From Kiritimatiellota bacterium (GTDB lineage Bacteria > Verrucomicrobiota > Kiritimatiellia > CAIQIC01): DNA of 41,561 nt. The stretch covers positions 7,449 to 49,009 of the forward strand of contig JAPLSZ010000251.1 of the NCBI GenBank assembly GCA_026398385.1. The letters are read 5' to 3'. Shown piece by piece: positions 1,697 to 41,561 of the stretch (position 1 is the first letter of the stretch; each line of letters starts with the position of its first letter). Under the pieces are notes generated by a model. That model saw only the letters and a program-made list of their open reading frames with translations. It was not told the origin of the DNA and ran no database searches. The position numbers and the translations under genes are program-made.

Positions 1697-1739
1697 ACCG
1701 GGTTGACACCAAGTTGTGGGGTTTGATAGAAAACACAGC

Positions 1740-19998: not shown

Positions 19999-20007
19999 AC
20001 ACGGATG
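19987..20007 (+). repeat. Copy 2 of the AGCCACGGATGAACACGGATG repeat; supplies the larB stop codon
   Basis: Identical 21-mer to 13577-13597. The TGA at 19996-19998 inside the motif terminates larB. Confidence 0.85.
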
Positions 20008-20159
20008 AAGCATGGAGAAGAATGGGGAAATTGGGGCGGGAAAAGAACGGAGTTCTATCCACAGATTGCACAGAGTACGCAGATGTTCAGCCGCTTTGCG
20101 CCTTGGCGTCTTGGCGCGAGAAACTCTTCGCCTAGGTTTTAACAACAGATAAGGCACGG
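20008..20159. repeat. Composite low-complexity/repeat spacer between larB and larC
   Basis: Contains CCACAGATTGCACAGAGTACGCAGAT (CACAGAT/CACGGAT-like units) and GCTTTGCGCCTTGGCGTCTTGGCGCG. The latter resembles the reverse complement of GCGGTTAACGCAAAGGCGCGAAGGTTGGCGG at about 13500-13530. The region ends in CACGGATGAAG, which carries the larC ATG. Confidence 0.55.
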
Positions 20160-25702: not shown

Positions 25703-26368
25703 ATGACAAACGTTTTGCGGCGCATGTTGTTATTCGGTCATGCCGGGCTGCCGGTCGCCCTGCTGTTGTTTGTCCTGGGCTGCGGCGGCGGCGACGGGGG
25801 CAACCAGGCGCCGGTGCTCGATGATTTCGGCGGGAACGATCCGAACGTGGTGGTGGCGTTCGGCGACAGCATTACCGAGGGCGTGGACGGCGGCGGCGCT
25901 CCGTATCCAGGCCGCCTGGCCGCCTTGAGCGGCCGACGGGTCATCAACGCCGGCGTCGGCGGGCAGGAAAGCGGACCCGGCCTCAGCCGCCTCGGCGGCA
26001 CGCTGGCCGCCCGCAAGCCCGGTTATCTTTGCATCCTCTTCGGCGCCAACGATGTCATCAGGGGGTATGATCAAAACACTACGATTGCCAACTTGCAGGC
26101 CATGCTCCAGAAGGCGCGCGCCAATAAGACCGTGCCGATTCTGGCCACGTTGACCCCGATGATCGGCGGGCACGGCATCTGGGGCTCCACCGTAAACCGG
26201 CTGAACGACGCCATCCGCAATCTAGCCTCCGCCGAGGGCGTCACGCTGGTGGATCTTAACGCGGAATTCGGCGATGCCGAGGTGCTGTTGATCGGCGACG
26301 GGCTGCATCCCAACGATCAGGGCAACCAAGTCATCGCCCTGGCCTTCAACGACGCGCTGCCACACTAG
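25703..26368 (+). CDS. SGNH/GDSL-family hydrolase, lipoprotein
   Basis: Lipobox LLFVLGCGGG. Block I VVAFGDSITEG, block III FGANDV, block V DGLHPN. Confidence 0.85.
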   Translation: MTNVLRRMLLFGHAGLPVALLLFVLGCGGGDGGNQAPVLDDFGGNDPNVVVAFGDSITEGVDGGGAPYPGRLAALSGRRVINAGVGGQESGPGLSRLGGTLAARKPGYLCILFGANDVIRGYDQNTTIANLQAMLQKARANKTVPILATLTPMIGGHGIWGSTVNRLNDAIRNLASAEGVTLVDLNAEFGDAEVLLIGDGLHPNDQGNQVIALAFNDALPH

Positions 26369-26632: not shown

Positions 26633-29600
26633 TCATTCCAGGTCGGTGCGGGGCTTGAAGAAGCGCTCCTGGATCTTCTCCATGTAGAGGTAGATGCCGG
26701 GGGTGACGAACAGGGTGATGAGCTGGGCGAAAATCATGCCGCCGGCGACGACGAGGCCAAGGGGCTTGCGGCTGGCGGCATCGGCGCCGTAGCCGAGGGC
26801 GATGGGCATGACGCCTAGAATCGCGCACAGGCCGGTCATCAGGATCGGCCGGAACCGGACCACACAGGCATCGTGGATCGCGTCGTAGGCGTTCTTGCCC
26901 TCGCGCCGGCGCTGCTCGGCAAAGTCCACCATCAGTATGCCGTTCTTGGTGATCAGGCCGAGCAGGACGAAGACGCCGATGTAGGCGTAGAGCGACAGCT
27001 CGCTGCGGAAGGCGAACAGCGTCAGAAAGCCGCCGAAGACGGCGACAGGCAGCGTGGTCAGAATCGTGAAGGGGTGGATATAGCTTTCGTAGAGAATCCC
27101 CAGCACAATGTATTTCAGAAAAATCGCGATCAGCAGCAGCGCCCCCAGGCTGGCGATAGATTTCTTGAATTCCAACGCATCGCCGATGAAGGTGCCCGCG
27201 ACGCCCGATGGCATGAGCTGCGCGGCGCGCGCTTCGATGGCCTTGGTGATGTAGCCGAGGGGGACGCCGGGCCAGACGCTGAAGGAGATGGTCGCGGCTT
27301 CGTGCTGGTTGGCGTGCGGGACGTTCTGCGGGCTGGCTTCCTCGGTCCAGTTGACGAGGGATTTGAGCGGGACGAGGCTGCCGCTCAAGGGCGAGCGCAG
27401 ATAGAGCAGCCCGAGGTTCTCCGGCAGGCGCTGGCTGGATTTCTCGATCTCCGGGATGACCTGATACTGATCCTGGTCGGTGGTGAACTGGGTCGCATAG
27501 CCGCCGGCGAAGGCCAGCGCCAGGGCCTGTTCGATGGCCGCGACGCTGATGCCGAGCGCGGAGGCGCGGTCGCGGTCCAGGGCGACGTTCAGCCGCGGCA
27601 TGTTGAGCTTGACGCTGTTCTGGACGGCAAACGGCACGATGCCGCCGATCTGCCGCATCTCTTTTTCGAGTTGCTGCGCGGCGGCATAGACCGTGTCGCG
27701 GTCGAGGCCGGTGAGCATATAGGCGTAGTCGCTGCCCATCTGGGTAGATTCGGCGCCGGAGCTGATCTTGAGGACGGGCGCCGCGCGCAGGGCGACGATG
27801 CCTTCCGGGAAGCGGGCGAGCTTGCCCATGTATTGCTGCACGAGCTGCTCGATCGCCGGGCGCTCGTGCGGGGATTTGAGGCGGGCGAAGATGAAGCCGA
27901 TGCTTTGATCGGCGCCGGGCTGAAATCCGGTGACGCTGCCGAGCTGGGCGATGGCGGGCTCCTGCTTGAGCTGGGCGACGACCTTGGCTTGATAGGCTTG
28001 CATCTGCTCGGTGGAGGCTCCCTGCGGCATGATCATGGCGCCGAACATGAAGGAGCTGTCGCCGGGCGGCAGGAAGGAGGAGGGCAGGACGAAATAGAGG
28101 ACGCCGGTGCCCAGAATACAGGCCAGCCACATGACCACCGCGAGCCACTTGTGGCGGAGCTGCCAGTGCAGGGCCACGCTGTAGCCGCGGATCAGCCGGC
28201 CGATGTTGGCCGTGATCCAGCGCTGCACGCGGTTGGGGGCTTGTTCGTGCTTCAGGATGTGCGCGCACATCATCGGCGTGAGCGTCAGCGCGAGGATGGT
28301 CGAGACGATGATCGCATAGATGACCGTCATCGCAAACTCGTTCAGGTTCCGGCCGACCGCGCCGCTCATGAACACCAGCGGGAGGAAGACGATGATCAGC
28401 GCCGCGCTGGTGGAGATGACCGTAAAGGAGATTTCCCGCATGCTCAGCAGCGCCGCCGGGATCGGCTTCAGGCCTTCCTCCAGGTGGCGGACGGTGTTTT
28501 CCAGCACGACGATCGCGTCATCCACGAGGAAACCGACCGCCAGCACGATGCCCATCAGGGAGAGCATATCTATGTTGAACTTGCTCGGCAGCATCAGCAG
28601 CAGCGTGCCGAGGAGCGAGATCGGCAGCACGATGCTGGGGATGATTGTTTCGCGGATGCGACCGAGGAAGAAGAAGATCACCAGCACGACGAGAATCAGG
28701 GCGATGAGCACCGTCACCTCGACATCGTGCAGCGATTCGCGGATCGGGCCGGCGCCGTTGTGGAGGGCATCAATTTCAATCGAACCGGGCAGTTCGCGCT
28801 TGGCCACCGCGAGCGCTGCCGAGATTTTGTCGGCGACTTCGACGGTGTTCGCGCCGCTGGCGCGGGAGACCGCCATGACCACGCACTTGTCGGTGTCCGG
28901 CACGCCGGGCTTGGTGTAGCGGATGTTGACGAGGTCGTTGGCGATGCTGTCCACGCAGGAGGCCACGTCCTTCAGCCGGATCGGCGCGCCGGCGCGCTGG
29001 GCGATGATCAGTTCGCCGAACTCGCGGCCCGTGCGGAGCTGGCCCTGCGGTTCGATGACATAGGTGCGCACGGCGCCGTTCAGCGTGCCGCCGGGGATGT
29101 TGACCGTGCCGGCGCGCAACGCCGCGGCGAGCTCGTCTACGCCGATCTGGTAGGCCGCCAGCTTCGCCGGGCTGAACTGCACGCGCACGGCGCGCTTCGC
29201 GCCGAACACCTGCACCTGCGAGACGCCCTCGATCATGCTCAATTTGCGCGAGATGATGTGGCTGGCGTAGTCGTTGAGATCGCCATGCGTCAGCGTGGCG
29301 GAGTGCAACATGATGTAATAGATCGGCTGCTCCGATGGGTTGAACTTCTTGTAGGTTGGCGGGTTGGGCAGGTCCCTGGGCAGGTTGTTCTGCGCGCGGG
29401 TGATCGCCGCCTGGACGTCCGGCGCCACCAGGTCCACGCTGCGGCTCAGGCTGAAGGTCAGGTTGATGGTGGAGACGCCCTGCTTGTTGTCGGAGAGCAT
29501 GGACTGCAGGCCGTTGATCTGCGTGAACTCGTTTTCCAGCGGCAGCGCGACGGCGCTGGCCATGGTCGCGGGGCTGGCGCCCGGGTAGGCCACGATGACT

Positions 29601-29737
29601 TGGATGACAGGATAGTCCACCGTCGGCAGGCTGTTGACCGGCAGGCGCAGGTAGGCCCAGGCGCCGGCGACGATCATCAGGGTGGTCATCAAAATCGTCG
29701 CTATCGGGCGCCGTACAAAAACTTCAGAAAAGATCAC
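26633..29737 (-). CDS. RND efflux transporter permease (AcrB/HAE1-like)
   Basis: About 1035 aa, 12-TM. N-terminus (V)IFSEVFVRRPIATILMTTLMIVAG. Start set at GTG 29737 (GGAG upstream) rather than 29785. Confidence 0.93.
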   Translation of the reverse strand: MIFSEVFVRRPIATILMTTLMIVAGAWAYLRLPVNSLPTVDYPVIQVIVAYPGASPATMASAVALPLENEFTQINGLQSMLSDNKQGVSTINLTFSLSRSVDLVAPDVQAAITRAQNNLPRDLPNPPTYKKFNPSEQPIYYIMLHSATLTHGDLNDYASHIISRKLSMIEGVSQVQVFGAKRAVRVQFSPAKLAAYQIGVDELAAALRAGTVNIPGGTLNGAVRTYVIEPQGQLRTGREFGELIIAQRAGAPIRLKDVASCVDSIANDLVNIRYTKPGVPDTDKCVVMAVSRASGANTVEVADKISAALAVAKRELPGSIEIDALHNGAGPIRESLHDVEVTVLIALILVVLVIFFFLGRIRETIIPSIVLPISLLGTLLLMLPSKFNIDMLSLMGIVLAVGFLVDDAIVVLENTVRHLEEGLKPIPAALLSMREISFTVISTSAALIIVFLPLVFMSGAVGRNLNEFAMTVIYAIIVSTILALTLTPMMCAHILKHEQAPNRVQRWITANIGRLIRGYSVALHWQLRHKWLAVVMWLACILGTGVLYFVLPSSFLPPGDSSFMFGAMIMPQGASTEQMQAYQAKVVAQLKQEPAIAQLGSVTGFQPGADQSIGFIFARLKSPHERPAIEQLVQQYMGKLARFPEGIVALRAAPVLKISSGAESTQMGSDYAYMLTGLDRDTVYAAAQQLEKEMRQIGGIVPFAVQNSVKLNMPRLNVALDRDRASALGISVAAIEQALALAFAGGYATQFTTDQDQYQVIPEIEKSSQRLPENLGLLYLRSPLSGSLVPLKSLVNWTEEASPQNVPHANQHEAATISFSVWPGVPLGYITKAIEARAAQLMPSGVAGTFIGDALEFKKSIASLGALLLIAIFLKYIVLGILYESYIHPFTILTTLPVAVFGGFLTLFAFRSELSLYAYIGVFVLLGLITKNGILMVDFAEQRRREGKNAYDAIHDACVVRFRPILMTGLCAILGVMPIALGYGADAASRKPLGLVVAGGMIFAQLITLFVTPGIYLYMEKIQERFFKPRTDLE

Positions 29738-29771
29738 GTTTTGCTCCGTTTCTCGCCTTGGAAAAATCCGC

Positions 29772-30926
29772 TCATTCCCCCTCACGCGCGATCTTCGCCG
29801 CCGTTGGCGCCGCCGCCGGCGGCGGCTGGGTCGCGTCCATCACCGGCGCGCCGGGGAACAGCATCAACTGGCCGAGCACGACGACGTTCTCGCCGGCCTG
29901 CACGCCGGACACCGCCTGCACGAGGTCGCCCACGCGCACGCCGAGCTGTAGCGGCCGCAGTTCCGCGGTGTTCTGCGCCGAGACGACGAACAGATACGGC
30001 CCCTGCTTGCCGAATTGCACCGCGCCCTCCGGCACCATCACCGCGCCGGGCACCGTGCCGGCATGCAGGCGCACGCTGACGAACTGGTGCGCCCAGAGTT
30101 TCAGGTCCGGGTTCGGCGCGGAGCCGCGCAACTGGATGGTGCCGGTCTGCGCGCTGACGGCATTTTCGATAACGTCGAGCGTGGCGGTGTAGGTGTTCGT
30201 CTCGCCGCGCGGGACGAGTTCCAGCTTGACCGGTCCGGCGGCGAGCGCGCGGCGGATCAGCGGGAGGTAATCCTCCGAGACGGAAAAATCCACAAAGAGC
30301 GGATCATAGCTGCGGATGTTCACCAGCCGCGTCAGACCGGCGGCGACGAGGTTGCCGTCGTCGGTAGTGCGCGTCGAGCAGACGCCGGCGAGCGGCGCGG
30401 CGATCGTGCAGCGCGCCAGGTTCAGGCGCGCGAGCGCGAGCAGCGCTTCGTCGGCCTGCAGCGCGGCGCTGGCGGCGGCGAACCTGGTCTTGATCGTGCC
30501 GAAGTCCTCGGCGGAGATCAGTTTCTTTTCGAGCAGCGGCTGGTTGCGCTCCATGGTCAGGCGCGCGAGTTCGCGGTTCGCCTGGTCGGCGGCGCGCGCG
30601 GCCTCGGCCTGCTGGACGCGCGCGGCGTAGTCGCGGGGATCAATCTGGAACAGCGGCTGCGCGTTGGTGACCACGGCGCCGTCCTGGATGAACGTCTGGA
30701 GCAGTTGCCCGGAGACCTGCGGGACGATGTCCACACTCATCCGCGCCTTCGTGGTGCCGAAGGCGTTGATGAGGACCGGCGCATCCATCGGCAGCGCGGG
30801 CGTCAGCTTGACGGGGAACGCCATCTTGGGGGGCGGGCCGGCGTGCTTGCCGCAGCCCGCCATCACGGCTACTACGGCCAGCGTGGCCAGCCCGCGTGTT
30901 GTTTTCAGAAAAATGTTGGGCTTCAT
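29772..30926 (-). CDS. RND efflux periplasmic adaptor (MFP, AcrA-like), lipoprotein
   Basis: Lipobox VMAGCG. Biotinyl-lipoyl/hairpin/beta-barrel pattern (VSGQLLQTFIQDGAVV..GQPLFQIDPRDY...AEAA...C.I.AP..G). Confidence 0.9.
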   Translation of the reverse strand: MKPNIFLKTTRGLATLAVVAVMAGCGKHAGPPPKMAFPVKLTPALPMDAPVLINAFGTTKARMSVDIVPQVSGQLLQTFIQDGAVVTNAQPLFQIDPRDYAARVQQAEAARAADQANRELARLTMERNQPLLEKKLISAEDFGTIKTRFAAASAALQADEALLALARLNLARCTIAAPLAGVCSTRTTDDGNLVAAGLTRLVNIRSYDPLFVDFSVSEDYLPLIRRALAAGPVKLELVPRGETNTYTATLDVIENAVSAQTGTIQLRGSAPNPDLKLWAHQFVSVRLHAGTVPGAVMVPEGAVQFGKQGPYLFVVSAQNTAELRPLQLGVRVGDLVQAVSGVQAGENVVVLGQLMLFPGAPVMDATQPPPAAAPTAAKIAREGE

Positions 30927-30962
30927 GTTTTTCTCCGTCGCGCGATGTTCATCGTTGCATTT

Positions 30963-31036
30963 GTAGGGGCGCAGTCTTGCTGCGTCCCATGTGCTCGGCG
31001 GTCATTTAGACGGGCGCAGCAAGACTGCGCCCCTAC
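30963..31036. repeat. Perfect 22-bp inverted repeat GTAGGGGCGCAGTCTTGCTGCG ... CGCAGCAAGACTGCGCCCCTAC (30-nt spacer)
   Basis: Read directly. It lies inside the efflux operon, between the OMF stop (31072) and the MFP start (30926). Confidence 0.9.
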
Positions 31037-31071
31037 CAACTGGTTGCCAGCCGGCACGGCAAGCCAAGGTT

Positions 31072-32514
31072 TCACGGTTGCCTCTCTGCCCTGGGGGCGT
31101 CCAGGTTTTCCCGGTCGAGCGTACCGCTGGCGAAGGCCAGGTTGGCCAGGGCGGTGAAGGCCTCCTGCCGCGCCGCGATGTTCTGGCTGCGCGCGCGCGC
31201 GAGCTGCGCCTCCGCCGTGAGCAGGTTGAGGATGTTCAACAAGCCGGCCTTATAGCTGTCCAGCGCGAGGTCATAGGCCGCCTGGGCGCTGTTCAGCAGC
31301 GCGGCGCTCGCGGCGCATTTTTTCAGCGCGGTCTGGTAGTTCTGATGCCCGCTCCACACCGCGGCGCTGGCGGCGAGTTCCGCCTGTTGCAACTGGCTGC
31401 GAACCGACGCCGCCTGCGCGGCGGCGGCGCGCCGGGCGTTGCGCGTCTGCAGACCGTCGAACAGCGTCCATTGCAGACTCAGGCCCGCGCCGTAGTTCCA
31501 ATCGTTCTCGGCCACGAACTGGCCGGTCCAGACCTTGTTGTAGTCGCGCAGCGCGTGGCCGTTGAGATAGAGCGACGGCCAGTTCGGCGCGCCGGCGACC
31601 TTGATCGCCGATGTGCTCGCCTGGAGCCGGGCGCGCAGCGCGGCGATGTCCGGCCGGCGGGCGAGCGCGGCATCAATCATCGGCGTCAACTGCGCGGCGT
31701 CCACGGCCGCGGGCAGGGTTTGCGCGGGCGCAGCCACCTGGACCGCCACATCCGCCGGCAACCCCAGCGCCTGGGTCAAGGCGGCCCGCGCGTTTTGCTC
31801 AGCGCCTTCCGCGCCCGCGAGCAGGAACGCGGCTTGATCCATCAGCGCCTGCGCCTGCAACACATCCAGTTCGCGCCCGACGCCGTGGTCGCGCCGGAGC
31901 TTCGCGAACTCGAGCGCGGTCTGCGCATCCGTGAGCTGCGCCTGCGCGGCGGTGATGCCAGCCTGCGCGCTAACAAGACCAAAGTAGGCCTGCTGCACCG
32001 CCAGCAGGATACCCTGCAACGTGCTGTTGAACGTGTAGTTGGCCGCATACACGGTGTGCAGCGCCTGTTCCACGGCCGCTTCGCGTCCGCCGCCGAAGTT
32101 GAAGATCAGGTAGTTGAGCTGCAGACCCGGCCCGTAGCCCAGATAGTCCTGGTCGAGCTGGTCCACACTGGAGTTGACCTTCTGGCGGGTGACGCTGCCC
32201 TGCGCGGTGACGGTCGGCATGAAATAGCCGCGCGCCTGCTGGGCCTGCGCGGCCGCCACGCGGGCGTCGTTCCACGCCTTGCGGCTCGCCGGATTGTTCT
32301 GCAAGGCGATATCGGCCAGTTCCGCCAGCTTCAGCGGTTTGGTCAGATTGGGACAGCGCGCGCGCAGTTCCTGCCACGACTGTAAAGAGGTCCGCGCCCG
32401 TTGCGGCGGCTTCCAAGGCTGAACCGCCGATTCCGGCGCGGGCGCCGAGACGCAGCCGGCCAACGCCATGGCTGCTGTGACCAGCGCGGCCGCAAGGTAA
32501 ATCCGGTGATTCAT
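31072..32514 (-). CDS. Outer-membrane efflux factor (TolC/NodT-family lipoprotein)
   Basis: MNHRIYLAAALVTAAMALAGC lipobox. Two repeated OEP halves with a coiled-coil pattern. Start ATG 32514 overlaps the marR stop (ATGA). Confidence 0.9.
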   Translation of the reverse strand: MNHRIYLAAALVTAAMALAGCVSAPAPESAVQPWKPPQRARTSLQSWQELRARCPNLTKPLKLAELADIALQNNPASRKAWNDARVAAAQAQQARGYFMPTVTAQGSVTRQKVNSSVDQLDQDYLGYGPGLQLNYLIFNFGGGREAAVEQALHTVYAANYTFNSTLQGILLAVQQAYFGLVSAQAGITAAQAQLTDAQTALEFAKLRRDHGVGRELDVLQAQALMDQAAFLLAGAEGAEQNARAALTQALGLPADVAVQVAAPAQTLPAAVDAAQLTPMIDAALARRPDIAALRARLQASTSAIKVAGAPNWPSLYLNGHALRDYNKVWTGQFVAENDWNYGAGLSLQWTLFDGLQTRNARRAAAAQAASVRSQLQQAELAASAAVWSGHQNYQTALKKCAASAALLNSAQAAYDLALDSYKAGLLNILNLLTAEAQLARARSQNIAARQEAFTALANLAFASGTLDRENLDAPRAERQP

Positions 32515-32888
32515 GACGTGTCCCTTTTGCGCGCGCGCGACGCGCGGCGCTGTCCACGCATCTGCTCCAGGCTGCGCCGCCCTCTGGCGGTGAGCGCCAC
32601 GCGCACCTCGCGCCGGTCCGCGCGGCTGCGGCGGCGCGCCACCAGCCCGCGGCGCGCGAGTTGATCCGCCAGGCCCGTCGCCGTCGAGCCGTGCAGCCGC
32701 AGTTCCCCGGCCAGCGCGCGCATGGTGCAGGGGCCGCGATCGAAGAGGTGCTCCAGCGCCCACATCTGCGGCAAGGTGAGCGCGCCCAGCGTGGAAAGAT
32801 CGGTTTGCGAGATGCCGCGCGATAAACGCGGCAGCAGCGCGACGAGGCGCGCGGCAAACTGCTCCAGTGTGAGGGCGGCGGTGGTCAT
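32511..32888 (-). CDS. MarR-family transcriptional regulator
   Basis: 125 aa. Winged-helix pattern LTLPQMWALEHLFDRGPCTMRALAGELRLHGSTATGLADQLARRGLVAR. First gene of the efflux operon. Confidence 0.85.
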   Translation of the reverse strand: MTTAALTLEQFAARLVALLPRLSRGISQTDLSTLGALTLPQMWALEHLFDRGPCTMRALAGELRLHGSTATGLADQLARRGLVARRRSRADRREVRVALTARGRRSLEQMRGQRRASRARKRDTS

Positions 32889-32914: not shown

Positions 32915-33075
32915 GACGCGAACTATAACCCCGAATCCGCCGGGTGCAAGCGAAATAAATTCGGTTTTACGCTTGAGAAATGCCGGCGAATGCGGGATTA
33001 TGCACCATGGTTTATGGCTGCGGCAGATCAAGGACAGCGCTGCGGTGGCGGCGTGTCGGGGAAGAAGGGCAGGGT

Positions 33076-34914
33076 ATGCAGACAGGGAAACAAGAGCGCG
33101 GCGTCAGCGTTTGGCTGGCGACGCTGGTAGCACTCGGTCTGGCGGCGGGCCATCTGGCGCCGGCCCAAGCGTTGGGGAGCGGCGCGGTTCCGGCCACTGT
33201 GCACCCGGCGGACGACGAGGCCTTCGTGTTTTCGCTTACGGCCAGCAATCCGCCGGCCGCGGCTGCCGAACCGGCGGGTCTGACGAACGCGCCGCAGGCG
33301 CGTTTGAACGCGGCGCAGAACGACGTGCAGCAGGGCCGGGTGGCCCAGGCGATTCCGACACTGGAACGACTGGTGGACGAGGCGCCGCAACTGACGGACG
33401 CCTGGGAGACGCTCGGCTGGGCTTACTGGCGGCTGGGGCGGGAGGACGAAGCCCTCGCGCTATGGGGGAAATTGCTGAAGCTCAACCCGCAGATGCCGCA
33501 GGCCTACAATCTGCTGGGGGCAGCCAGCGTCAAGCGTAACGAGCTGACCATGGCCGCCATGTACTATGAAAAGAGCCTGCAGATCCAGCCGGACCAATAC
33601 GATGTGGAATTGGCCCTGGCCCGCATCGCGCGCTGGACCGGCGACGAGGAGCGTGCCATCGAAAAATTGCGGGCCTTGGCGGCGAAAGATCCCCGGCGCC
33701 GGGATGTGAAAAACGAGTTGTCCCGCGCGCTGGGGGGCGCAAGCGAAGAGCCGGCCAACCCTGTGGAACCCGGCGCGCCAGGGTCCTCCTCTGCCACCAA
33801 CGAGGAACACCGGGCGCGTCCGGCGGCGGACGCGTCATCTCCGCGCAACGCGCTCGCCGGCCAGCCGCCGGCCAGCCTCCCGGGGGACCGCGCTGCGCCT
33901 GAGCGCGCAGCCCAGCCGCCCGCCCCGCCGCTCGCGGTGGCGAGCGAGGGGCGCGGCGCGCAGAACGTCGCGCGCTACCGGCCGTATGTCGGGGCGCTAG
34001 CCGAAACCTTTCAGGATAATCTGGATAGCCGCAACTGGCGCGCATACGGACGCGCGGGCTTCCAGCCGACGCCCCGTCTGACGGTCGAAGGCCGTGCCGG
34101 TTATGGTCAGATGAAACAGGCCTTCACCAACAGCAGCGCGATCAATGTTCCCGACATCACGTTGGACGAGAAGATGGTCAGCCTCGCCCCCTCGTGCACG
34201 TCCCCGAACGGCTGGACGTTGCTGGGCGAGTTAGCGGCTCGCCAGTTCTCCGGCGCCGTTCCGGGCGCGCAGAATTTTGATAAAACCGTATTGCAATATG
34301 CCCTCGAGGGCCAGGCCAAGCCGCTGCTGCCCCTCGACGTGGCGGCGCGGTACGAGCACGACATCGTCCCCGCCGCCCGCGCGGCCCTCAAGGAGACCAC
34401 CTCCAACATGGCCTTGCTTAGCGCCGTCTGGAGCCTGACCGACTGGTGGAACCTCTGGGCCAGCGGCGAACGGTACGATTTTTCCGATGGCAATGCCCGC
34501 AACCACCTGGCGCTGAGCAGTTCCTGGCTGGTGTGGGAGCCGCTCGGCCTGCATCTGGGCCTGCGGTACGCCTATGCCGACGCCAGCGTGGCCAGTCCCG
34601 ATTACTGGACGCCTTATCAATTGCAGCGGTATTTTGTCGAGGCCGATCTGCGCGGGACGCAGCTGCGCATCTTTTATAACCTGCGCCTGCGCTATGGCCT
34701 GGGGCGGCAGGGCGTGCGGCCGGAAGCCCAGGCGGCCCTCGCCTTGCCCGGCAGCAATCCGCCCGAGGAGGGCTGGCAACCGGTGATCGGCGCCAGCGCC
34801 GCCGCGCGCGCGAAGGTCGGCAAACATTGGGAACTCAGCGGCGAAGTTTCGCACAACAAGATGCCTGACTATAACGAAACCACGGTAACGGCTGGCTTGA
34901 ACTACAGGTTCTGA
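33076..34914 (+). CDS. TPR-repeat protein fused to a C-terminal outer-membrane beta-barrel (PgaA/YaiO-type architecture)
   Basis: Signal peptide MQTGKQERGVSVWLATLVALGLAAGHLAPAQA. TPRs (DAWETLGWAYWRLGREDEALALWGKLLKLNPQMPQAYNLLG...). Pro/Ala linker. An alternating-hydrophobic C-domain of about 310 aa ends in ...TAGLNYRF (aromatic terminal residue). Confidence 0.7.
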   Translation: MQTGKQERGVSVWLATLVALGLAAGHLAPAQALGSGAVPATVHPADDEAFVFSLTASNPPAAAAEPAGLTNAPQARLNAAQNDVQQGRVAQAIPTLERLVDEAPQLTDAWETLGWAYWRLGREDEALALWGKLLKLNPQMPQAYNLLGAASVKRNELTMAAMYYEKSLQIQPDQYDVELALARIARWTGDEERAIEKLRALAAKDPRRRDVKNELSRALGGASEEPANPVEPGAPGSSSATNEEHRARPAADASSPRNALAGQPPASLPGDRAAPERAAQPPAPPLAVASEGRGAQNVARYRPYVGALAETFQDNLDSRNWRAYGRAGFQPTPRLTVEGRAGYGQMKQAFTNSSAINVPDITLDEKMVSLAPSCTSPNGWTLLGELAARQFSGAVPGAQNFDKTVLQYALEGQAKPLLPLDVAARYEHDIVPAARAALKETTSNMALLSAVWSLTDWWNLWASGERYDFSDGNARNHLALSSSWLVWEPLGLHLGLRYAYADASVASPDYWTPYQLQRYFVEADLRGTQLRIFYNLRLRYGLGRQGVRPEAQAALALPGSNPPEEGWQPVIGASAAARAKVGKHWELSGEVSHNKMPDYNETTVTAGLNYRF

Positions 34915-35014
34915 GCATGGTCGGGCTTTGAACCAATACGGACCGGTGCTATAGTGCAGCGGCGCGCCTGTGGCGGGATGGATGTTTGGGGCGGTTACGC
35001 GGACGAAAGGGGAA

Positions 35015-35245
35015 ATGCCAGTGGATACGCAATTGTTTCTCGCGAGCTTGGCCGGAATTCTCAAGGTCCTACCCGGTTCGATCAAGGGGGAAGATCAACT
35101 GGATCAATGTGCGTCTTGGGATTCGCTGGCGGTGGTCACCTTTCTGACCATGGCCAACTCGAAATTTGGCGTGCGCGTATCGCCGCCGGCGGTGATTCGA
35201 TGCAAGACGGTAGCCGATTTGATGCGGCTGGTCGCCAAGCCCTGA
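35015..35245 (+). CDS. Acyl/peptidyl carrier protein (PP-binding)
   Basis: 76 aa. ...QLDQCASWDSLAVVTFLTMANSKFGVRV with Ser codon 35123-35125 in a DSL motif. ATG 35015 is preceded by AAAGGGGAA. Confidence 0.75.
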   Translation: MPVDTQLFLASLAGILKVLPGSIKGEDQLDQCASWDSLAVVTFLTMANSKFGVRVSPPAVIRCKTVADLMRLVAKP

Positions 35246-35322
35246 TCGGCGGCCACCCGATCATAGGAGAGGCCAAGCCTGGGTTCATCCTGGAAGAGTT
35301 TGGCGCAGGCCGCCTGACATGT

Positions 35323-37188
35323 ATGGACGATTTTTTATCCACCGTTCAGAGTTGCCGGCAACTGATGACGCAGGGCGAGGTGGCCACGGCGCTCGCGGGT
35401 TTGCGGGCGGGGTTGCGTTTCGGCCAGCCGGAACCGTTCGAGTATGATCTGGCGGGACAACTGCTGGGGGAAATAGGCGCCGTGGTCCCCGCGCCCGCCG
35501 CCTTTCCGACGTACCGGGTGGGCCTCGTGGCCGACCACACCACCACCACACTGGCGAACGCGATCCGCTGCGCCTTGCTGATGGAGGGGTTGCTGCCCGT
35601 GGTCTACGAAGCGCCTTTCGGCGCGGTTTTCCAGGAAATCCTCGATCGCCACAGCGGTCTTTATCGCGAACCGCGCGACGCGGTGCTCATGGCATTTCAT
35701 CACCGTATGATCGAATATCCGGAACAGCCTTTGGGTGGCGCCGTCCCGGCCGAAGAACTGGCCGCGCGCGTGGTGGGCCGGTGGGCGGAGGCGTGGGCGG
35801 CGCTCCAGCAGAACTTGGGTTGCCAGGTGTGGCAACACACCCTGGTGCCGTCGGGTCTGGCGGGATTGGGGGCGGTGGAGCAGTCGTTGCCGGCGGCGCC
35901 GGACCAGTTCATTGGGCGGATCAATCAGCTCAGCCGCGAGCGGGCGCCGGCCTTTGTGCATTGGGTGGACACGGCCAGCCTGGCGCAACAGGTTGGGTTC
36001 AGAAACTGGCATGATCCGCGCATGTACTACTACGGCAAGTTCGGCTTCAATCCTCAGTATGTGCGGGATTACATCAACGTATTTTTGGGCGCTTTTCGCG
36101 CGGCCACCGGGCGGAACCGCAAAGTCCTGATCACAGACCTGGACAACACGCTGTGGGGCGGGGTTGTCGGCGACGCCGGCCTGGAGGAAATCAAGCTGGG
36201 TCCGGGCACGCCGGAGGGCGAAGCCCACGAAGCTTTCTGCCGCTATCTGAAAAGCCTGAAGGAACGCGGCGTTATGCTGGCGGTCTGCAGCAAGAATGAC
36301 GCGGCGACGGCGCGGGAAGTGTTCGAGCGCCATCCCCACATGCCGTTGCGGCTGGCGGATTTCTCCGCTTTTTGCTGCAACTGGAGTGACAAGGCCGGCA
36401 ATGTACTGCAGATGGCGAAGGAGTTGAACATCGGCCACACGCATCTGGCCTTCGTCGATGACAATCCCGCGGAATGCGAATTGATCCGGCGCGAATTGCC
36501 GGAGGTCGCGGTGGTGGCGTTGCCCGAGGATCCCGCCGATTTCGTGGCCGCTATTGATGAGGCGCATCTCTTCGATGCGGCGCACGTGTCGTCGGAGGAT
36601 TTGCTGCGCGCGCAATCCTACCGGGCGCGCGAGCAGGCGGAAGACGTCAAGCGTTCCGCCGGCAGCTTGGAGGCTTACCTGGCGGACCTGCGCATGGTGG
36701 GGAAATTCTTCCGGGCCAGCGCGGCGGACGTGCCCCGTCTGGCGCAGATGGAGCTCAAGACGAATCAATTCAATGTGACCACCCGTCGCTATAACGCCGA
36801 CCAGATCCGGGCCTTCCTGCAGGATGACCACATGGCGGTGTTCGCTTGTACGCTGGCCGACCGGTTTGCGAATCACGGCCTCGTTTCCACCCTGATCGCA
36901 CGCCGCGCAGGCCAGGACCTGGTGCTGGATAGCTGGCTGATGAGCTGCCGCGTTTTTTCGCGGACGCTGGAACAGTTCATGATGAATGCCTTGATCGAAT
37001 TTGCGCAGAAAAATGGCATCACGCGTATAGTCGGCGATTACCTGCCGACCTCCAAAAATGCCGTGGTGCAGGATCTTTTCTCCTCATTGGGTTTTCAACC
37101 CCTGGGCCCGAAGGCGAGCGGTCGCTGGGTGCGCAACATTCGCGACGACCCACCGCTGCCCACCAGCGTGCGCAACGACGCCACGTAA
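35323..37188 (+). CDS. FkbH-like / HAD-superfamily IIIC phosphatase-acyltransferase (carrier-protein loader)
   Basis: HAD motif I LITDLDNTLWGG (DLDNTLW = 36136-36156). KTNQFNVTTRRY. C-terminal GNAT-like block with WLMSCRVFSRTLE (Cys codon 36946-36948). N-domain VGLVADHTTTTL...VYEAPFGAVFQEILD..SGLY. The start is uncertain (35323, or 35200 overlapping the carrier gene). Confidence 0.85.
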   Translation: MDDFLSTVQSCRQLMTQGEVATALAGLRAGLRFGQPEPFEYDLAGQLLGEIGAVVPAPAAFPTYRVGLVADHTTTTLANAIRCALLMEGLLPVVYEAPFGAVFQEILDRHSGLYREPRDAVLMAFHHRMIEYPEQPLGGAVPAEELAARVVGRWAEAWAALQQNLGCQVWQHTLVPSGLAGLGAVEQSLPAAPDQFIGRINQLSRERAPAFVHWVDTASLAQQVGFRNWHDPRMYYYGKFGFNPQYVRDYINVFLGAFRAATGRNRKVLITDLDNTLWGGVVGDAGLEEIKLGPGTPEGEAHEAFCRYLKSLKERGVMLAVCSKNDAATAREVFERHPHMPLRLADFSAFCCNWSDKAGNVLQMAKELNIGHTHLAFVDDNPAECELIRRELPEVAVVALPEDPADFVAAIDEAHLFDAAHVSSEDLLRAQSYRAREQAEDVKRSAGSLEAYLADLRMVGKFFRASAADVPRLAQMELKTNQFNVTTRRYNADQIRAFLQDDHMAVFACTLADRFANHGLVSTLIARRAGQDLVLDSWLMSCRVFSRTLEQFMMNALIEFAQKNGITRIVGDYLPTSKNAVVQDLFSSLGFQPLGPKASGRWVRNIRDDPPLPTSVRNDAT

Positions 37189-37329
37189 GCAGCCGTCCGC
37201 GCGCGCGGTTATCCGGCGTCTGGAACAGGCGGCGAGTGGTCTGCTGCGGGAGCTTGCGCGCTACACAGGGCAGCGCCACCGCCGGCTAAAACGGAGGGGG
37301 CGCGTTCACGCGGGCCGGCGCTCGACGAT

Positions 37330-37722
37330 TTACATCAAGTGATTGGTCGGCGTGAAAAACCAGGCGATCCGCCGTCCGCCAAACGCGGTGGCAGGCACCG
37401 GTGGGCTCACCAGCGTGCAACCTTGCTGGAGCAGGGCGGCCATCGTCGGCGTCAGATCATCCACTTCGCAGCAAAGGTGGTAGGCGCCGATACCCTTGGC
37501 CAATGTGCGGGTGATCGGCGAGTCGTCGCTCAACGCTTCGATCAATTCGATCGCAGAGTCGGTCCCTTGAGCGGGGCCCAGGAAGCAGACCCGGACTCTT
37601 TGCATGGGGTCATCGAATGGGCCAGAGCGTACGACAAAACCAAAGGCCTGCTGATAAAACTTCACGGCCTGCTCGATGTCCGCCACCGCCACGCCCAGAT
37701 GATGAATCTTAAGATCCGTCAT
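37330..37722 (-). CDS. VOC-family protein (glyoxalase I / methylmalonyl-CoA epimerase-like)
   Basis: 130 aa. MTDLKIHHLGVAVADIEQAVKFYQQAFGF ... GAYHLCCEVDDL. Start trimmed to ATG 37722. Confidence 0.8.
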   Translation of the reverse strand: MTDLKIHHLGVAVADIEQAVKFYQQAFGFVVRSGPFDDPMQRVRVCFLGPAQGTDSAIELIEALSDDSPITRTLAKGIGAYHLCCEVDDLTPTMAALLQQGCTLVSPPVPATAFGGRRIAWFFTPTNHLM

Positions 37723-37943
37723 GGTTATTGCTCTTGCCGAAGTAAAACATACGGCGGCGCACAAGTCCAGGCGCATGGCTTCATCCGCTTGGGCGAGGTG
37801 CGGATTGCCAAACCCGCGGGATTGTAGTAGAAGCTCCGTTTCTTAAAGAAAGGCCTGTGATGAACCGACCGCCGAGCGCGAGAATAAGACGCGAGCTTAT
37901 GGCCGCCGGGCCGGGCGGGTGGGCCCGCGACAGGTGCTAAGTC

Positions 37944-39377
37944 ATGCTTTTCCCAACCCTCGCTTTTGCCGTCTTTTTCCTGATCGTGTTTTGCGGCCAC
38001 TGGCTGTTGATCCGGCACGCGGTCGCGTGGAAGCTGTTCATTCTGGCCGCGAGCTGGTTTTTCTATGCTTATTGGGACTGGCGCTTTCTGGGCCTATTGA
38101 TCCTGTACACGGTGGTCAATTACAGCCTGGCGTTGGCCTCGTACCAGAGCGGCACGCCGCCCCGGCGACGGTGGGTGGCCTTGGCCATCGTGTTCAATCT
38201 CAGCCTGCTGGGGTTCTTCAAATACTACGGCTTTTTCACGGTCTCCGCCTATGCCGTCTGCGGCTGGGTGGGACTGCGCTGTCCGCTGCCCTTGCTGGAC
38301 GTCGTGCTGCCGATCGGCATTTCCTTCTTCACGTTTCAAGCCATAAGCTATGTCATTGATGTGCACCGCGGACTGATCGAGCCGGCGCACAGCGTCATTG
38401 ACTTTGCGATCTATAAGGCTTTTTTCCCGCAACTCGTGGCCGGGCCGATCATCCGGGCGAGTCACTTTATACCGCAATTCTACCAGATCATGAGCGTGCG
38501 GCGCATTGACGCGGGCCGGGCCGCCGCCTTGATCATGGGCGGCCTGTTTAAGAAGGTGGTGATCGCCAACTATATAGCCGTGAACGTGGTGGACCCGGTC
38601 TTTGGCAACCCGTGGGCGTATCAGGGCCTGGATGTCCTGCTGGCGGTGTACGGCTATGCCGTGCAGATTTACTGCGATTTCTCCGCCTATTCCGATATCG
38701 CCATCGGCGTGGCGCAACTGCTGGGATTCCATTTCCCTGAAAATTTCAACGCGCCTTATTTCGCCCGGTCCGTCCGCGAGTTCTGGCAGCGCTGGCACAT
38801 TTCCCTGTCCACCTGGCTGCGGGATTATCTTTTTTTCAGCCTGCTCGGCACCCGGCTGGGCGCCTCGCGTTACGCGCTGGGCCTCTGCGCCTTGCTTACG
38901 TTTCTGCTGGGCGGTTTGTGGCATGGCGCCGCGTGGACGTTTGTCCTATGGGGCGCGTTGCAGGGCCTGTATATGACGACGGAGTTTCTGCTGGCCAAGC
39001 TGCTGGTCTGGATGCGCGCGGGTCGTCCGCTGCCCGAGGGACCGGTGATGCGGTTGGCGCAGCGGATGGCGGTGATCCATTTGATCTGCATTTCCCATTT
39101 GTTCTTTCGGGCGCATTCCATTACGGACGGGGTGCAACTATTACAGGGGATCATGGGTTCGTGGCACGGCGCCGTCTTGCTCACTTTCCCGGCCGTCTTG
39201 GCGCTGATCATCGGCTTTCTCACGCAATACATGGATGGCACCCGCTGCGCGCCGATTTGGAATTGGTACAACCGCCTGCCGGCGGTCGGGCAGGGGCTGC
39301 TGGCGGCGGTGGTGTTGACGATCGTCCTGGCCCTGGGGCCGCAAGGCGTGGCGCCCTTCATCTATTTTCAATTCTGA
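37944..39377 (+). CDS. MBOAT-family membrane O-acyltransferase (AlgI/DltB-like)
   Basis: 477 aa, polytopic. ISFFTFQAISYVIDV; FWQRWHISLSTWLRDYLF; GGLWHGAAWTFVLWG (conserved His codon 38922-38924). Confidence 0.9.
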   Translation: MLFPTLAFAVFFLIVFCGHWLLIRHAVAWKLFILAASWFFYAYWDWRFLGLLILYTVVNYSLALASYQSGTPPRRRWVALAIVFNLSLLGFFKYYGFFTVSAYAVCGWVGLRCPLPLLDVVLPIGISFFTFQAISYVIDVHRGLIEPAHSVIDFAIYKAFFPQLVAGPIIRASHFIPQFYQIMSVRRIDAGRAAALIMGGLFKKVVIANYIAVNVVDPVFGNPWAYQGLDVLLAVYGYAVQIYCDFSAYSDIAIGVAQLLGFHFPENFNAPYFARSVREFWQRWHISLSTWLRDYLFFSLLGTRLGASRYALGLCALLTFLLGGLWHGAAWTFVLWGALQGLYMTTEFLLAKLLVWMRAGRPLPEGPVMRLAQRMAVIHLICISHLFFRAHSITDGVQLLQGIMGSWHGAVLLTFPAVLALIIGFLTQYMDGTRCAPIWNWYNRLPAVGQGLLAAVVLTIVLALGPQGVAPFIYFQF

Positions 39378-39384
39378 GACGACC

Positions 39385-39672
39385 ATGAAAGAAATGTCCG
39401 ACATTGGCGCCGAACGCAGGCAACAAGGCCACGGGCAGACCATCATCCGGACGGCAGCGGCCGTGCTTTGCTTCTATGTGTTTGCGGGCCTGCTCAACGG
39501 CGAGGCCCTCCGGCACGACGTGGAACTCATGCCCTACGGGGGCCGACGGGATGTCTGCGTGGCCCTCGTCAAGCCCATGGCCTGGTTGAGCCGGGTGACC
39601 TACCTGGGATCCTTCCGGAGCTGGATCGAAAAAAGCGTCCGCAAAGCGGATATGGCGGCGCCGAATCCCTGA
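39385..39672 (+). CDS. Small single-TM membrane protein (hypothetical; MBOAT partner candidate)
   Basis: 95 aa, starting 7 nt after the MBOAT stop. One TM, IIRTAAAVLCFYVFAGLL. No recognisable domain. Confidence 0.5.
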   Translation: MKEMSDIGAERRQQGHGQTIIRTAAAVLCFYVFAGLLNGEALRHDVELMPYGGRRDVCVALVKPMAWLSRVTYLGSFRSWIEKSVRKADMAAPNP

Positions 39673-39677
39673 CGGCC

Positions 39678-41561
39678 TTAGAACTTGAACTTGATTCCGC
39701 CCAGCAGGTTCAGCGAGTTATAATCGGGCAGGCGGTTATAGGAAACTTCCCCGTTCAATTCCCAATGGCCACCTAATTTGATCCGCGTGGCCGCCACCAG
39801 CCCCAGCACGGGTTCCCAGCCCGGTTCCTCGATCGGGTTGGCCAGCAGGACATCAATATAATGCTGGAAGTTTCTAATGGTGGCCGGGCTGAATCTTCTG
39901 CTGCGGGCTGTTCGCAGGCTTTGCTGCAACTGTTGCAGATCTTCCTGATACTTGCGCTTGGCTTCAGGACGCAAGCTCTCCTTGCCGAGGCCGTAGCGCA
40001 CGCCGATATTGTAATAGATCCGCCGGTAGGTGCGCCGGAAAAAGGCTTCCAGGTAGTAGCGGTTCAGTTTATAGGGCGTCCAGTAGTCCGGACTGGCTTC
40101 GTCGGCGGAGGTATATTCATAGCGCAGCCCCAGGCGGAAACCGGCGGGCTCATACAGCAGCCACAAGCTTTCCGCCATCAAATGATTGCGGTTGTTGGAA
40201 TCGGAAAACATGTAACGCGTGCCGCTGGCGTTGAGGTCCCACCAATCGAACAGACGGTAGGCCGCGGCGAGCGTGCCGGCGTTGTAGGTGGTATCTTTAA
40301 GCGCCGCGCGCGCGGAAGGCACGATGTCGTGCTCCCAACGCGCGGCCACGTCCAGCGGCAACAGCGGCTTGATCTGTGCTTCCGCCGCATACTGGATTAC
40401 CGTTTTGTCGAAGTTGGCTGTGTGGCCGTTCAAGTCCGTCGGCACCTTGCCCGTGAAGTGGCGATCAGAAAGCTCGCCCAGCAACACCCAGCCGTTGGGG
40501 AATTTGACCGCCGGCGCCACGCCCACCGTGCGCTCATCCAGTCGAATCTCCGGTCCGTTGAGCGCCAGATTGTTGGTGAACGCCTGCTGCATCCGGCCGA
40601 TGCCCGCCGTGCCCTCCACGGTGATGTTGGGGGTCAGGTTCAAACCCCCGAGGCCCAGGAGGCGCCAGTTGCGACTGTCGAGGTTGTCCTTGAGATACTC
40701 CGCCCGGACGCCGACATACGGGTCTTTCAATTCCAGATGGAAGGGTCCCTTGGTGACTTTACTGATACCCACCGGTGTCGTGCGCACCCCCGTCAGGCGT
40801 TCGTACACGTAACTCGCCACTTTGTTGTAGGCATTCGTCGGATAGCCGTCCTGCCGCAATTGCGCCAAGGCGTCCTTGGATTTATAGATCTTGCCTTCCT
40901 GGGCGGCGTATTCGGCCCGCAGCCGGTGGGCCAGAAAGACCGGGTGATTGCGCAGGAGGTATTCCACGGCTTCCGCTCCCGGCAGGCGCCCCAGCTCGTG
41001 GCGCTGGTAGAGCAGGGGGTTGTCGCCGTTGACCGCGTAACCAAACTGGCTTTGGATAAAGCCGGTTTTATAGTTGGCGGCCGCTTCCCGGAGATTGACC
41101 GTGAGGGCCTCGGGCATGTCGCTGCGCGTTTCCTGGCCGAGGTCGCCCATGGGGTAGGCGATGATATCCGCTGCGCCGCCCAGCTTCTGCTGCATAATTT
41201 CGCGGCTGCGCTGGTATTCATATTTGATGCGGGCATCATATTCGTTTTCGGTTTCCAGCCGGTTCGGCGCAGCGAGCCATAGGCGGTTGGCCAGCGGATG
41301 GATGACCGAATTGTCGGACTCCATGTGCAGCACCTCATGGGCTTCCATCAAATGGCTGCCAAACCGCCAGCGGCCCGTGGCTTGAGCGGCCTTCATCTGC
41401 TCCCAGGAACTGGTGTAGGAATCGTGATCCACATGGCCCACGGGCACATGCATGAGGAATGTCGTGTTGAAATCCTGCGCCACCGCGGTCCCCAGCCGCA
41501 GGGCCTCCCGCCGCGCATCGTCGAAGGTGACCATGACCACACGCTCGGGTGTACCCGTCGG
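39678..41561 (-). CDS. NodB/PgaB-like polysaccharide deacetylase fused to a C-terminal outer-membrane beta-barrel; 5' end beyond the window
   Basis: The frame is open to the window edge (...PTGTPERVVMVTFDD). TFDD (41517-41528) and H-x4-H (GSHLMEAH) are as in PgaB, plus AYPMG. The C-terminal domain of about 345 aa is paralogous to 33980-34914 and ends ...GGIKFKF. Confidence 0.75.
   Translation of the reverse strand, partial: PTGTPERVVMVTFDDARREALRLGTAVAQDFNTTFLMHVPVGHVDHDSYTSSWEQMKAAQATGRWRFGSHLMEAHEVLHMESDNSVIHPLANRLWLAAPNRLETENEYDARIKYEYQRSREIMQQKLGGAADIIAYPMGDLGQETRSDMPEALTVNLREAAANYKTGFIQSQFGYAVNGDNPLLYQRHELGRLPGAEAVEYLLRNHPVFLAHRLRAEYAAQEGKIYKSKDALAQLRQDGYPTNAYNKVASYVYERLTGVRTTPVGISKVTKGPFHLELKDPYVGVRAEYLKDNLDSRNWRLLGLGGLNLTPNITVEGTAGIGRMQQAFTNNLALNGPEIRLDERTVGVAPAVKFPNGWVLLGELSDRHFTGKVPTDLNGHTANFDKTVIQYAAEAQIKPLLPLDVAARWEHDIVPSARAALKDTTYNAGTLAAAYRLFDWWDLNASGTRYMFSDSNNRNHLMAESLWLLYEPAGFRLGLRYEYTSADEASPDYWTPYKLNRYYLEAFFRRTYRRIYYNIGVRYGLGKESLRPEAKRKYQEDLQQLQQSLRTARSRRFSPATIRNFQHYIDVLLANPIEEPGWEPVLGLVAATRIKLGGHWELNGEVSYNRLPDYNSLNLLGGIKFKF

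Follow-up and report, generated by a model that had tools for sequence, protein, structure and literature searches.

A PgaB-like deacetylase domain fused to an outer-membrane barrel in a Kiritimatiellota contig and in related PVC bacteria

In the poly-N-acetylglucosamine (PNAG) system of Escherichia coli, modification and export of the polymer are shared by two proteins, PgaA and PgaB, which between them supply a tetratricopeptide repeat (TPR) scaffold, a carbohydrate esterase family 4 (CE4) domain with Asp-His-His metal ligands and an H-x4-H spacing, and a 16-stranded outer-membrane barrel. The membrane-proximal TPRs of PgaA bind PNAG, bind the deacetylase domain of PgaB and stimulate it (2022; PMC9384988). 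The BcsZ-BcsC fusion of Zymomonas offers a precedent for the joining of a periplasmic polymer-processing enzyme to a TPR-porin, and the operon survey that describes it also lists glycosyltransferase-PgaB fusions (PMC7112194). Here, a gene combining these modules in one chain is analysed, which lies at the end of a 41,561-nucleotide stretch of Kiritimatiellota DNA (the window, i.e., the whole stretch at its full length) and had been described in an initial annotation as a PgaB-like deacetylase fused to its own barrel. On the basis of sequence comparisons, predicted structures and analogy with the Pga system, its product is probably the terminal TPR porin of a synthase-dependent export pathway for an N-acetylglucosamine (GlcNAc) polymer, with de-N-acetylation by an in-line CE4 domain.

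The fusion gene and the modules it encodes

The gene and the segments of its product are as follows; P-numbers denote individual homologous proteins and L-numbers the loci fetched from relatives.

39678..41561, minus strand: fusion gene, C-terminal 627 codons plus stop; a continuous open reading frame (ORF), full-length homologues being 1031-1093 amino acids (aa)
40992..41561, minus strand: PgaB/IcaB-type CE4 (NodB-fold) domain, residues 1-190, with the first ~65 residues missing (Pfam, PDB profiles, hhalign, Foldseek)
41517..41528, minus strand: TFDD, residues 12-15; D14 aligns with the catalytic base of PgaB (D114) and D15 with a metal ligand (D115)
41337..41360, minus strand: GSHLMEAH, residues 68-75; H70/H75 correspond to the H-x4-H metal ligands (PgaB H184/H189)
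41145..41159, minus strand: AYPMG, residues 135-139; aligns with the (W/Y)PYG motif of PgaB/IcaB
40791..40979, minus strand: four-helix TPR-like module, residues 195-257 (AlphaFold2 model; counterpart at 668-729 in the P0002 model)
39681..40727, minus strand: 16-stranded outer-membrane beta-barrel, residues 279-627, ending ...KFKF (AlphaFold2, Foldseek)
39816..39977, minus strand: helical hairpin, residues 529-582, in the loop between strands 13/14 (DSSP of the models, alignment gaps)

Translation of window positions 39600-41561 gives a minus-strand frame of 627 codons (39678-41561) with zero internal stops, closed by a stop codon at 39678-39680 after a C-terminal ...GGIKFKF, with Phe as the last residue, and open on its 5' side past the end of the window. 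An identical 627-aa protein is present at NCBI (P0001), where it is already labelled a 'partial' polysaccharide deacetylase of a Kiritimatiellaeota metagenome-assembled genome (MAG); hence, the contig itself, and not the window alone, stops inside the gene, and the 5' end lies beyond the contig. By comparison with the homologues, ~460 codons are probably missing beyond the contig end, and the lost N-terminus would comprise a TPR array of ~400 aa and the first ~65 residues of the CE4 domain, the YH motif included. The G+C content at third codon positions (0.78) is similar to that of the remaining window genes, in a window with 65% G+C overall.

The complete homologues (1,031-1,093 aa, 25-55% identity to the window protein) share a layout, recovered by alignment and by three segment hidden Markov models (HMMs), of signal peptide, ~370 TPR positions, CE4 domain, helical module and barrel. 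The TPR array is found N-terminally in all the full-length homologues (~370 HMM positions), the window gene being cut before it, and the CE4 domain begins with a conserved 'AVAVLLYHGL' strand ~65 residues ahead of TFDD. As the full-length relatives carry a signal peptide and ~11 TPR pairs, the protein is to be seen as a TPR porin in the style of PgaA, BcsC and PelB with an inserted deacetylase. Thus, the fusion of a PgaB-like enzyme to a barrel stands as initially annotated, while the overall identity as a PgaB furnished with a barrel does not. That the fusion is covalent and real is evident both from the stop-free 627 codons and from the occurrence of the same collinear arrangement in single ORFs of more than 60 independent genomes.

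The enzyme part matches Polysacc_deac_1 (PF01522) over residues 4-148 above the Pfam threshold (E=1e-7, 32.4 bits against a gathering score of 23.1). In an hhalign comparison of the family profile with E. coli PgaB (98% probability, E=1.2e-13), YH pairs with H55, TFDD with D114-D115 and GSHxxxxH with H184-H189. The three motifs originally read from the DNA, i.e., TFDD, located exactly at 41517-41528, GSHLMEAH and AYPMG, are indeed all in frame in the one ORF, and on proper alignment the base Asp and the Asp-His-His ligands are retained with the H-x4-H spacing (D14, D15, H70, H75). A profile of the CE4 segment run against the PDB retrieved IcaB 4WCJ as the best match (5e-18), as well as AaPgaB 4U10, BpsB 5BU6 and PgaB 3VUS/4F9D, and Foldseek superimposed the CE4 part on PgaB-type domains with TM-scores of 0.76-0.77. 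Further, a PgaB-specific helix of the form 'R-x-E-T..EY..R....S' is common to the CE4 domain and PgaB. The PgaB equivalog models TIGR03938/PRK14582 give 32.5 bits against a cutoff of 321.9, and the NCBIfam IcaB match is likewise weak and far below threshold. In the models of the window protein and of P0002, the CE4 domain is followed only by the four-helix module and the barrel, with no GH153-like second domain. From these comparisons, the enzyme part is IcaB-like in size and PgaB-like in motifs.

The AlphaFold2 model of the window protein (mean pLDDT 84.9) has its four helices at 195-257 and, after a brief disordered stretch, 16 strands at 279-626, the pLDDT of the barrel being mostly above 90. 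The full-length model of P0002 (pLDDT 87.2, pTM 0.75) extends this picture: 22 helices (29-410) precede an alpha/beta domain (413-661), four further helices (668-729), ~15 disordered residues and a barrel of 16 beta-strands (752-1089), again with a helical hairpin between strands 13 and 14. The region between enzyme and barrel had initially been taken for a helical linker of about 100 aa; its helical nature is borne out, but the helices occupy only ~65 aa, and ~20 remaining residues are disordered in the model. With the window-protein model as the Foldseek query, which begins in the CE4 domain and has no TPR array, the top matches are BcsC 9B8A/6TZK (E=3e-12), PgaA 4Y25 (E=5e-12, target TM 0.73) and PelB 9H80. 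The alignment to 6TZK ('BcsC with terminal TPR repeat') covers 497 columns, exceeding the barrel by ~150; this agrees with the view that the helical module corresponds to the terminal TPR packed beneath the barrel. The barrel is, accordingly to these models, predicted to adopt the PgaA/BcsC/PelB export-porin fold. It is without a Pfam model, the best match of the fusion being Opacity at E=0.087, and no NCBIfam barrel model matches it. The hairpin loop between strands 13/14 is predicted to be extracellular; in the window protein this hairpin is ~25 residues longer and more basic (RKYQEDLQQLQQSLRTARSRRF...) than in homologues.

Queried with the barrel alone, phmmer delineates a small family of 78 clusters among 1.84 billion representative proteins, and the result shows how often Polysacc_deac_1 is fused to this barrel: among the members extending upstream, all carry a CE4 domain but three, namely P0012, the possibly truncated P0021 and the window's second barrel gene (see below). 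A scan of one genome per species across 185,579 species recovered 111 relatives; every named taxon among them belongs to the PVC group (Kiritimatiellia, Lentisphaerae, Victivallales, 'Verrucomicrobiota' and one MAG labelled Akkermansia), the rest being labelled only 'uncultured bacterium'. A single isolate is included, Kiritimatiellaeota bacterium B1221 (locus L047), and the contig of P0002 reappears as locus L045. Across these loci, all three parts occur in single stop-to-stop ORFs of 1,050-1,460 codons, so that the fusion is the ancestral, defining state of the family and no oddity of one contig. The TPR-CE4-barrel arrangement is, hence, a real, conserved and lineage-specific architecture.

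Fusion genes also occur in tandem, with three copies in L025 (8068-19462) and L043 (1186-11917) and two in each of L029, L031, L033 and L055. When five catalytic positions are tabulated (acid His, base Asp, and the metal ligands Asp, His and His), the copies within an array differ: HDDHH, HDDRQ and HDDHH in L025, and EDGLH, RQGFD and HDDHG in L043. Such differing active sites suggest sub-functionalised or hetero-oligomeric porins, and the two-porin gate envisaged in the initial annotation is compatible with the frequency of tandem arrays in relatives. Additionally, barrel-less TPR-CE4 paralogues of ~800-890 aa stand directly upstream of a fusion gene or alone (L005 3193-8302; L008 5989-8440; L045 5514-8184; L061-L065).

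Gene neighbourhoods in relatives and in the window

The relatives' gene neighbourhood can be seen at the P0007 locus (L001-L003). On one strand it encodes, in order, an MBOAT protein, AlgX, the fusion protein, a second MBOAT protein, a 90-aa protein and an SGNH/DUF459 protein; divergently oriented are the genes for a 187-aa lipoprotein-like protein, a 1,319-aa protein and a family 2 glycosyltransferase (GT2). No other barrel protein is annotated in this locus, the sole one with precomputed Pfam gene calls. By NCBIfam comparison, the relatives' GT2 is nearest to NodC (8e-50) and then to PgaC/IcaA (1.5e-33), the SGNH protein is nearest to PatB (1e-21), and the 1,319-aa protein most resembles, at its N-terminus, the PgaB deacetylase domain (8e-25), after which TPRs follow. 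Recurrence of the cluster was assessed by tblastn of the P0007-locus proteins on all fetched loci, with counts taken for the 38 loci of at least 15 kb:

GT2 (within 10 kb): 21/38
~1,300-aa protein: 22/38
MBOAT: 20/38
SGNH: 21/38

An MBOAT match was found in 32/79 loci, and the copies adjoining the relatives' fusion genes are 49-74% identical. No PgaD was detected. As judged from these sequence matches, the relatives' cluster is composed like a synthase-dependent pathway whose N-acetylhexosamine polymer would be both N-deacetylated and O-acylated. In L025, the genes for an FkbH protein, an MBOAT protein, a small protein and an SGNH protein are followed by three fusion genes.

The ~1,300-aa partner (L002 10527-14486, minus strand) is encoded next to the GT2 gene and combines one N-terminal transmembrane helix, a PgaB-like CE4 fold and TPRs. 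It was considered as the real deacetylase in view of its stronger match to the PgaB HMM (8e-25); yet its catalytic positions are non-canonical in 31/31 loci, with YE for YH, TFDH/TFDQ for TFDD and the second His absent, giving a typical five-position pattern of E-D-H-H-x. This leaves only the porin-borne and the barrel-less TPR-CE4 domains as canonical deacetylase candidates, and in the ~1,300-aa protein itself, a pseudo-deacetylase may be the core of an inner-membrane co-polymerase or scaffold. Between it and the SGNH gene lies the gene for the 187-aa protein (L002 9967-10530, minus strand), which has a lipoprotein-like signal (…LAGVGTVGC…) and recalls PelC in size and position; tblastn at 1e-8 found no homologue of it in the other loci.

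In the window, the fusion gene is convergent with an MBOAT cluster, and a gene for a second, CE4-less barrel protein lies further off:

32980..34914, plus strand: paralogue of 644 aa with a signal region, ~4 TPRs, a Pro/Ala-rich linker and the same barrel; no CE4 (BLASTP, HMM)
34970..35245, plus strand: acyl/peptidyl carrier protein, PP-binding (PF00550 E=8.5e-8; 85% identical to the L082 carrier gene)
35323..37188, plus strand: FkbH-domain (HAD-IIIC) protein, 622 aa (TIGR01686 E=1e-86; 95% identical to the L082 622-aa gene)
37330..37776, minus strand: glyoxalase-fold protein
37944..39377, plus strand: MBOAT O-acyltransferase, DltB/AlgI/PatA-like (Pfam MBOAT E=1e-21; NCBIfam DltB E=4e-48, below cutoff)
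39385..39672, plus strand: 95-aa single-pass membrane protein after the MBOAT gene (40% identical to the L002 90-aa gene; position conserved in 17 loci)

Over 347 aa of barrel, the 644-aa paralogue and the fusion share 53% identity (BLASTP), the match of the paralogue to the Pfam model OMP_b-brl being below threshold. The TPRs of the paralogue match positions 3-145 only of the family TPR-HMM, and the Pro/Ala-rich stretch stands where the remaining TPRs, the CE4 domain and the helical module would be. In a neighbour-joining tree of 62 barrels, without bootstrap and thus merely indicative of its placement, the paralogue groups with P0012 beside the window fusion and P0002/P0003, inside the CE4-bearing lineages. 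Judging by this identity and nesting, it appears to be a duplicate that has lost its middle, the enzyme domain included, and the initial notion of a 'second TPR-barrel' as a separate type of porin gives way to that of an apparently derived paralogue. The order paralogue-carrier-FkbH-glyoxalase recurs on a second metagenomic contig, L082.

The genes for the carrier, FkbH, MBOAT and 95-aa proteins (34970-39672, plus strand) resemble as a set the Dlt pathway, with its carrier protein, the MBOAT protein DltB and the small DltX, but with an FkbH protein instead of the DltA ligase; the set is also present in L082 and L025. By analogy, this suggests that the exported polymer is O-acylated from the carrier protein, possibly with a group of the glyceryl type, glyceryl-S-ACP being the expected product of an FkbH protein. 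A single 744-aa ORF at 34954-37188 was rejected as an over-extension, as it comprises the carrier gene and the 622-aa FkbH gene. The first 13 residues of the L082 carrier match frame 1 (34978-35016) and the remainder frame 2 (34976-35242); the split frames at the start of the carrier gene (34954-35322) point to an indel or frameshift, or to a later start codon (MPVDTQ...). A GDSL gene at 25703-26368 was likewise rejected as the SGNH partner of the MBOAT protein: tblastn at 1e-8 shows no similarity to the SGNH protein of the relatives, and an RND efflux operon lies in between. This complete operon (26633-32763, minus strand), directly upstream of the paralogue, encodes an AcrB-type pump, an HlyD-type adaptor and an OEP/TolC-type channel; the plus-strand ORFs that overlie it (26873-30079 and 30991-32385) have no Pfam matches and are probably spurious.

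Elsewhere in the window, at 18988-21536 (plus strand), a LarB-type AIR-carboxylase-like gene is followed by a LarC-type nickel-insertion gene (E=3e-126), both of them cofactor genes of nickel-pincer enzymes such as lactate racemase. Genes for a GH2 enzyme and an alpha-L-fucosidase (with F5/8 type C) at 1716-3542 and 6981-8693 (plus strand) are typical of the polysaccharide-degrading lifestyle reported for Kiritimatiellae.

Proposed function and its alternatives

The structural and genomic framework above allows a working model of the fusion protein in the proposed export pathway. By analogy with the Pga system, the TPR array would take the nascent chain from the inner-membrane synthase complex and lead it across the periplasm; the embedded CE4 domain would then strip the N-acetyl group from a fraction of the residues directly beneath the outer membrane; the terminal helical module would dock the assembly onto the barrel; and the modified chain would exit via the barrel. 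The fusion could in this way be the covalent counterpart of the non-covalent complex that the PgaB deacetylase domain forms with the membrane-proximal TPRs of PgaA. Deacetylase activity of the window copy is plausible from its aligned residues and those of its closest full-length relatives. The acid His is kept in 47/62 family members covering the position, including the close full-length P0002 and P0003.

Several observations weigh against this proposal. First, the position of the catalytic-acid His (PgaB H55) is off the contig and outside the window. Second, the complete H-D-D-H-H pentad is present in only 18/74 barrel-fused copies from the genome loci; 35/74 have H-D-D-H with S/G/A/N in the last position, and the rest are further degenerate, some fully, such that the family as a whole conserves fold and position more than chemistry. 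Third, the NCBIfam models for PgaA (TIGR03939), PgaB and BcsC (PRK11447) all score far below cutoff, and a kinship of the barrel with PgaA at the sequence level was tried and rejected: with the family profile, hhalign yields only a weak TPR match to E. coli PgaA (17% probability) and no detectable similarity in the barrel, the relation being at the fold level only. A rough lumen charge, derived from the alternating residues of the strands as a guide to the charge of the polymer, is net 0 with poor amphipathic contrast and uninformative. Finally, the relatives' GT2 is far below the NodC/PgaC equivalog cutoffs, so that the sugar and linkage are not fixed by this match, and neither a scan of the ORFs nor tblastn with the relatives' copies finds a GT2 or ~1,300-aa gene in the 41.5-kb window. 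With no synthase in the window and the contig ending inside the gene, the link of the window copy to such a synthase rests on relatives that are 25-55% identical.

The pattern of residue loss bears on the alternative that the CE4 domain is a non-catalytic pseudo-enzyme that binds or guides the polymer, with deacetylation left to the barrel-less TPR-CE4 paralogues or to other enzymes. Among representative family members, the base Asp is kept in 66/70, the metal Asp in 55/70, the first metal His in 48/70 and the second in 23/70; the Y, P and G of the AYPMG motif are nearly invariant, and conservation at many non-catalytic positions (W65, E103, R111, YPxG, GFIQ) exceeds that of the metal ligands. 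The complete pentad is found in 11/16 barrel-less paralogues, as against the much lower proportion in barrel-fused copies, and in some systems (L002) both CE4-like proteins are degenerate. However, D14, D15, H70 and H75 are all present in the window copy; of the full-length relatives closest to it (40-50% identity), the full HDDHH pentad is seen in P0002, P0003 and P0005, while P0004 and P0006 lack the second metal His; and tandem arrays usually include at least one intact copy. A pseudo-enzyme is considered unlikely.

It is distinctly improbable that the CE4 domain is instead an esterase trimming O-acyl groups added by the MBOAT/carrier system. The CE4 family does include O-acetyl esterases, the fusion gene is convergent with the MBOAT gene in a window that also encodes a carrier and an FkbH protein, and relatives cluster MBOAT, small membrane protein and PatB-like SGNH genes. 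Nevertheless, the nearest relatives of the domain in sequence and structure are all PNAG de-N-acetylases (IcaB, PgaB, BpsB), with which it shares PgaB-specific features, and the NodC/PgaC-like synthase associated with the family implies an N-acetylated substrate.

The initial annotation had also raised the possibility that the barrel is an anchoring module rather than a pore, in which case it would replace the lipid anchor of PgaB and the polymer would leave elsewhere, e.g., via the CE4-less paralogue. A second barrel gene does lie 4.8 kb away, many relatives have two or three tandem barrel genes, and the helical hairpin of the long loop could occlude the lumen. Set against this are the 16 strands and the best structural matches to the polysaccharide porins BcsC, PgaA and PelB, along with the rarity of the CE4-less form (3/78 clusters, one possibly truncated), which appears derived; most loci have fusion-type barrels only, and L001-L003, the only locus with precomputed Pfam gene calls, has no other annotated barrel. 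An anchor-only barrel is therefore very improbable. Lastly, an artefact through frameshift, chimeric assembly or read-through of two genes has a negligible probability, for although the contig belongs to a metagenome bin and breaks off within the gene, the 627 codons are free of stops and more than 60 independent assemblies have the same architecture in single ORFs.

A more far-reaching extension of the de-N-acetylating porin proposal is tentative and, as a whole, rather doubtful: that PVC bacteria (Kiritimatiellia, Lentisphaerae) possess a previously undescribed single-chain 'PgaA+PgaB' machine, often in tandem arrays of alternating intact and degenerate copies and, in the lineage of the window, with a carrier/FkbH-fed MBOAT protein, making a new, partly de-N-acetylated and O-acylated GlcNAc polymer. 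If true, the free amines of this polymer could be an entry to the N-sulfated, glycosaminoglycan-like exopolymers of Kiritimatiellae, cultured members of which make N-sulfated hexosamine polymers (PMC7356697); a link of those polymers to the fusion system is speculative.

Comparison with known polymer modification and export systems

Neither a TPR-CE4-porin fusion nor such a system in PVC bacteria turned up in searches of the full-text literature, and the large operon survey (PMC7112194) mentions neither this fusion nor PVC taxa. The BcsZ-BcsC precedent recorded there differs in that its enzyme is a GH8 hydrolase as opposed to a CE4 domain, and in polymer and phylum. BcsC and PelB otherwise provide the top structural matches of the linker and barrel (9B8A, 6TZK, 9H80).

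The potential O-acylation module may be compared with the Dlt, PatAB and AlgIJF systems, whose combination of MBOAT, small membrane protein and SGNH protein is also seen in relatives. As with DltC in the Dlt system, the carrier protein of the window could supply the acyl group; the loader in Dlt is, however, a DltA-type ligase as against the FkbH-domain protein in the window, and the target here is presumably the exported polysaccharide.

How modification and export are coupled is a question common to all synthase-dependent exopolysaccharide systems. A natural, hard-wired fusion provides independent evolutionary support for the docking geometry of PgaA and PgaB and a single-chain target for structural work on the TPR-enzyme-porin assembly, and the variable loss of catalytic residues offers a natural series on the role of the enzyme domain beyond catalysis. 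Kiritimatiellia and Lentisphaerae are known for unusual exopolymers. With the family come an outer-membrane barrel so far without annotation, a conserved gene cluster of these poorly studied lineages and an entry into the exopolymer biology of Kiritimatiellia.

At the level of the enzyme, IcaB is similar to the CE4 domain of the fusion in being a single CE4 domain with no hydrolase domain, with the same order of motifs and a YH ahead of TFDD; it differs as an extracellular enzyme, either free or associated with the membrane, of Gram-positive systems, whereas the CE4 domain of the fusion is embedded between TPRs and barrel. At the level of the operon, pgaABCD and the relatives' cluster both contain a PgaC/NodC-like GT2, to which the latter adds the MBOAT/SGNH acylation module and the ~1,300-aa protein with its transmembrane, CE4-like and TPR regions. 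In E. coli, the PgaB deacetylase docks at the membrane-proximal TPRs of PgaA (PMC9384988), and the CE4 domain of the fusion is placed at the equivalent end. Unlike PgaA and PgaB, the fusion is one chain and not two, lacks the GH153/C-terminal domain of PgaB and has no need of a lipid anchor. By the sequence comparisons above, it would thus work like PgaA and PgaB together and yet be an orthologue of neither.

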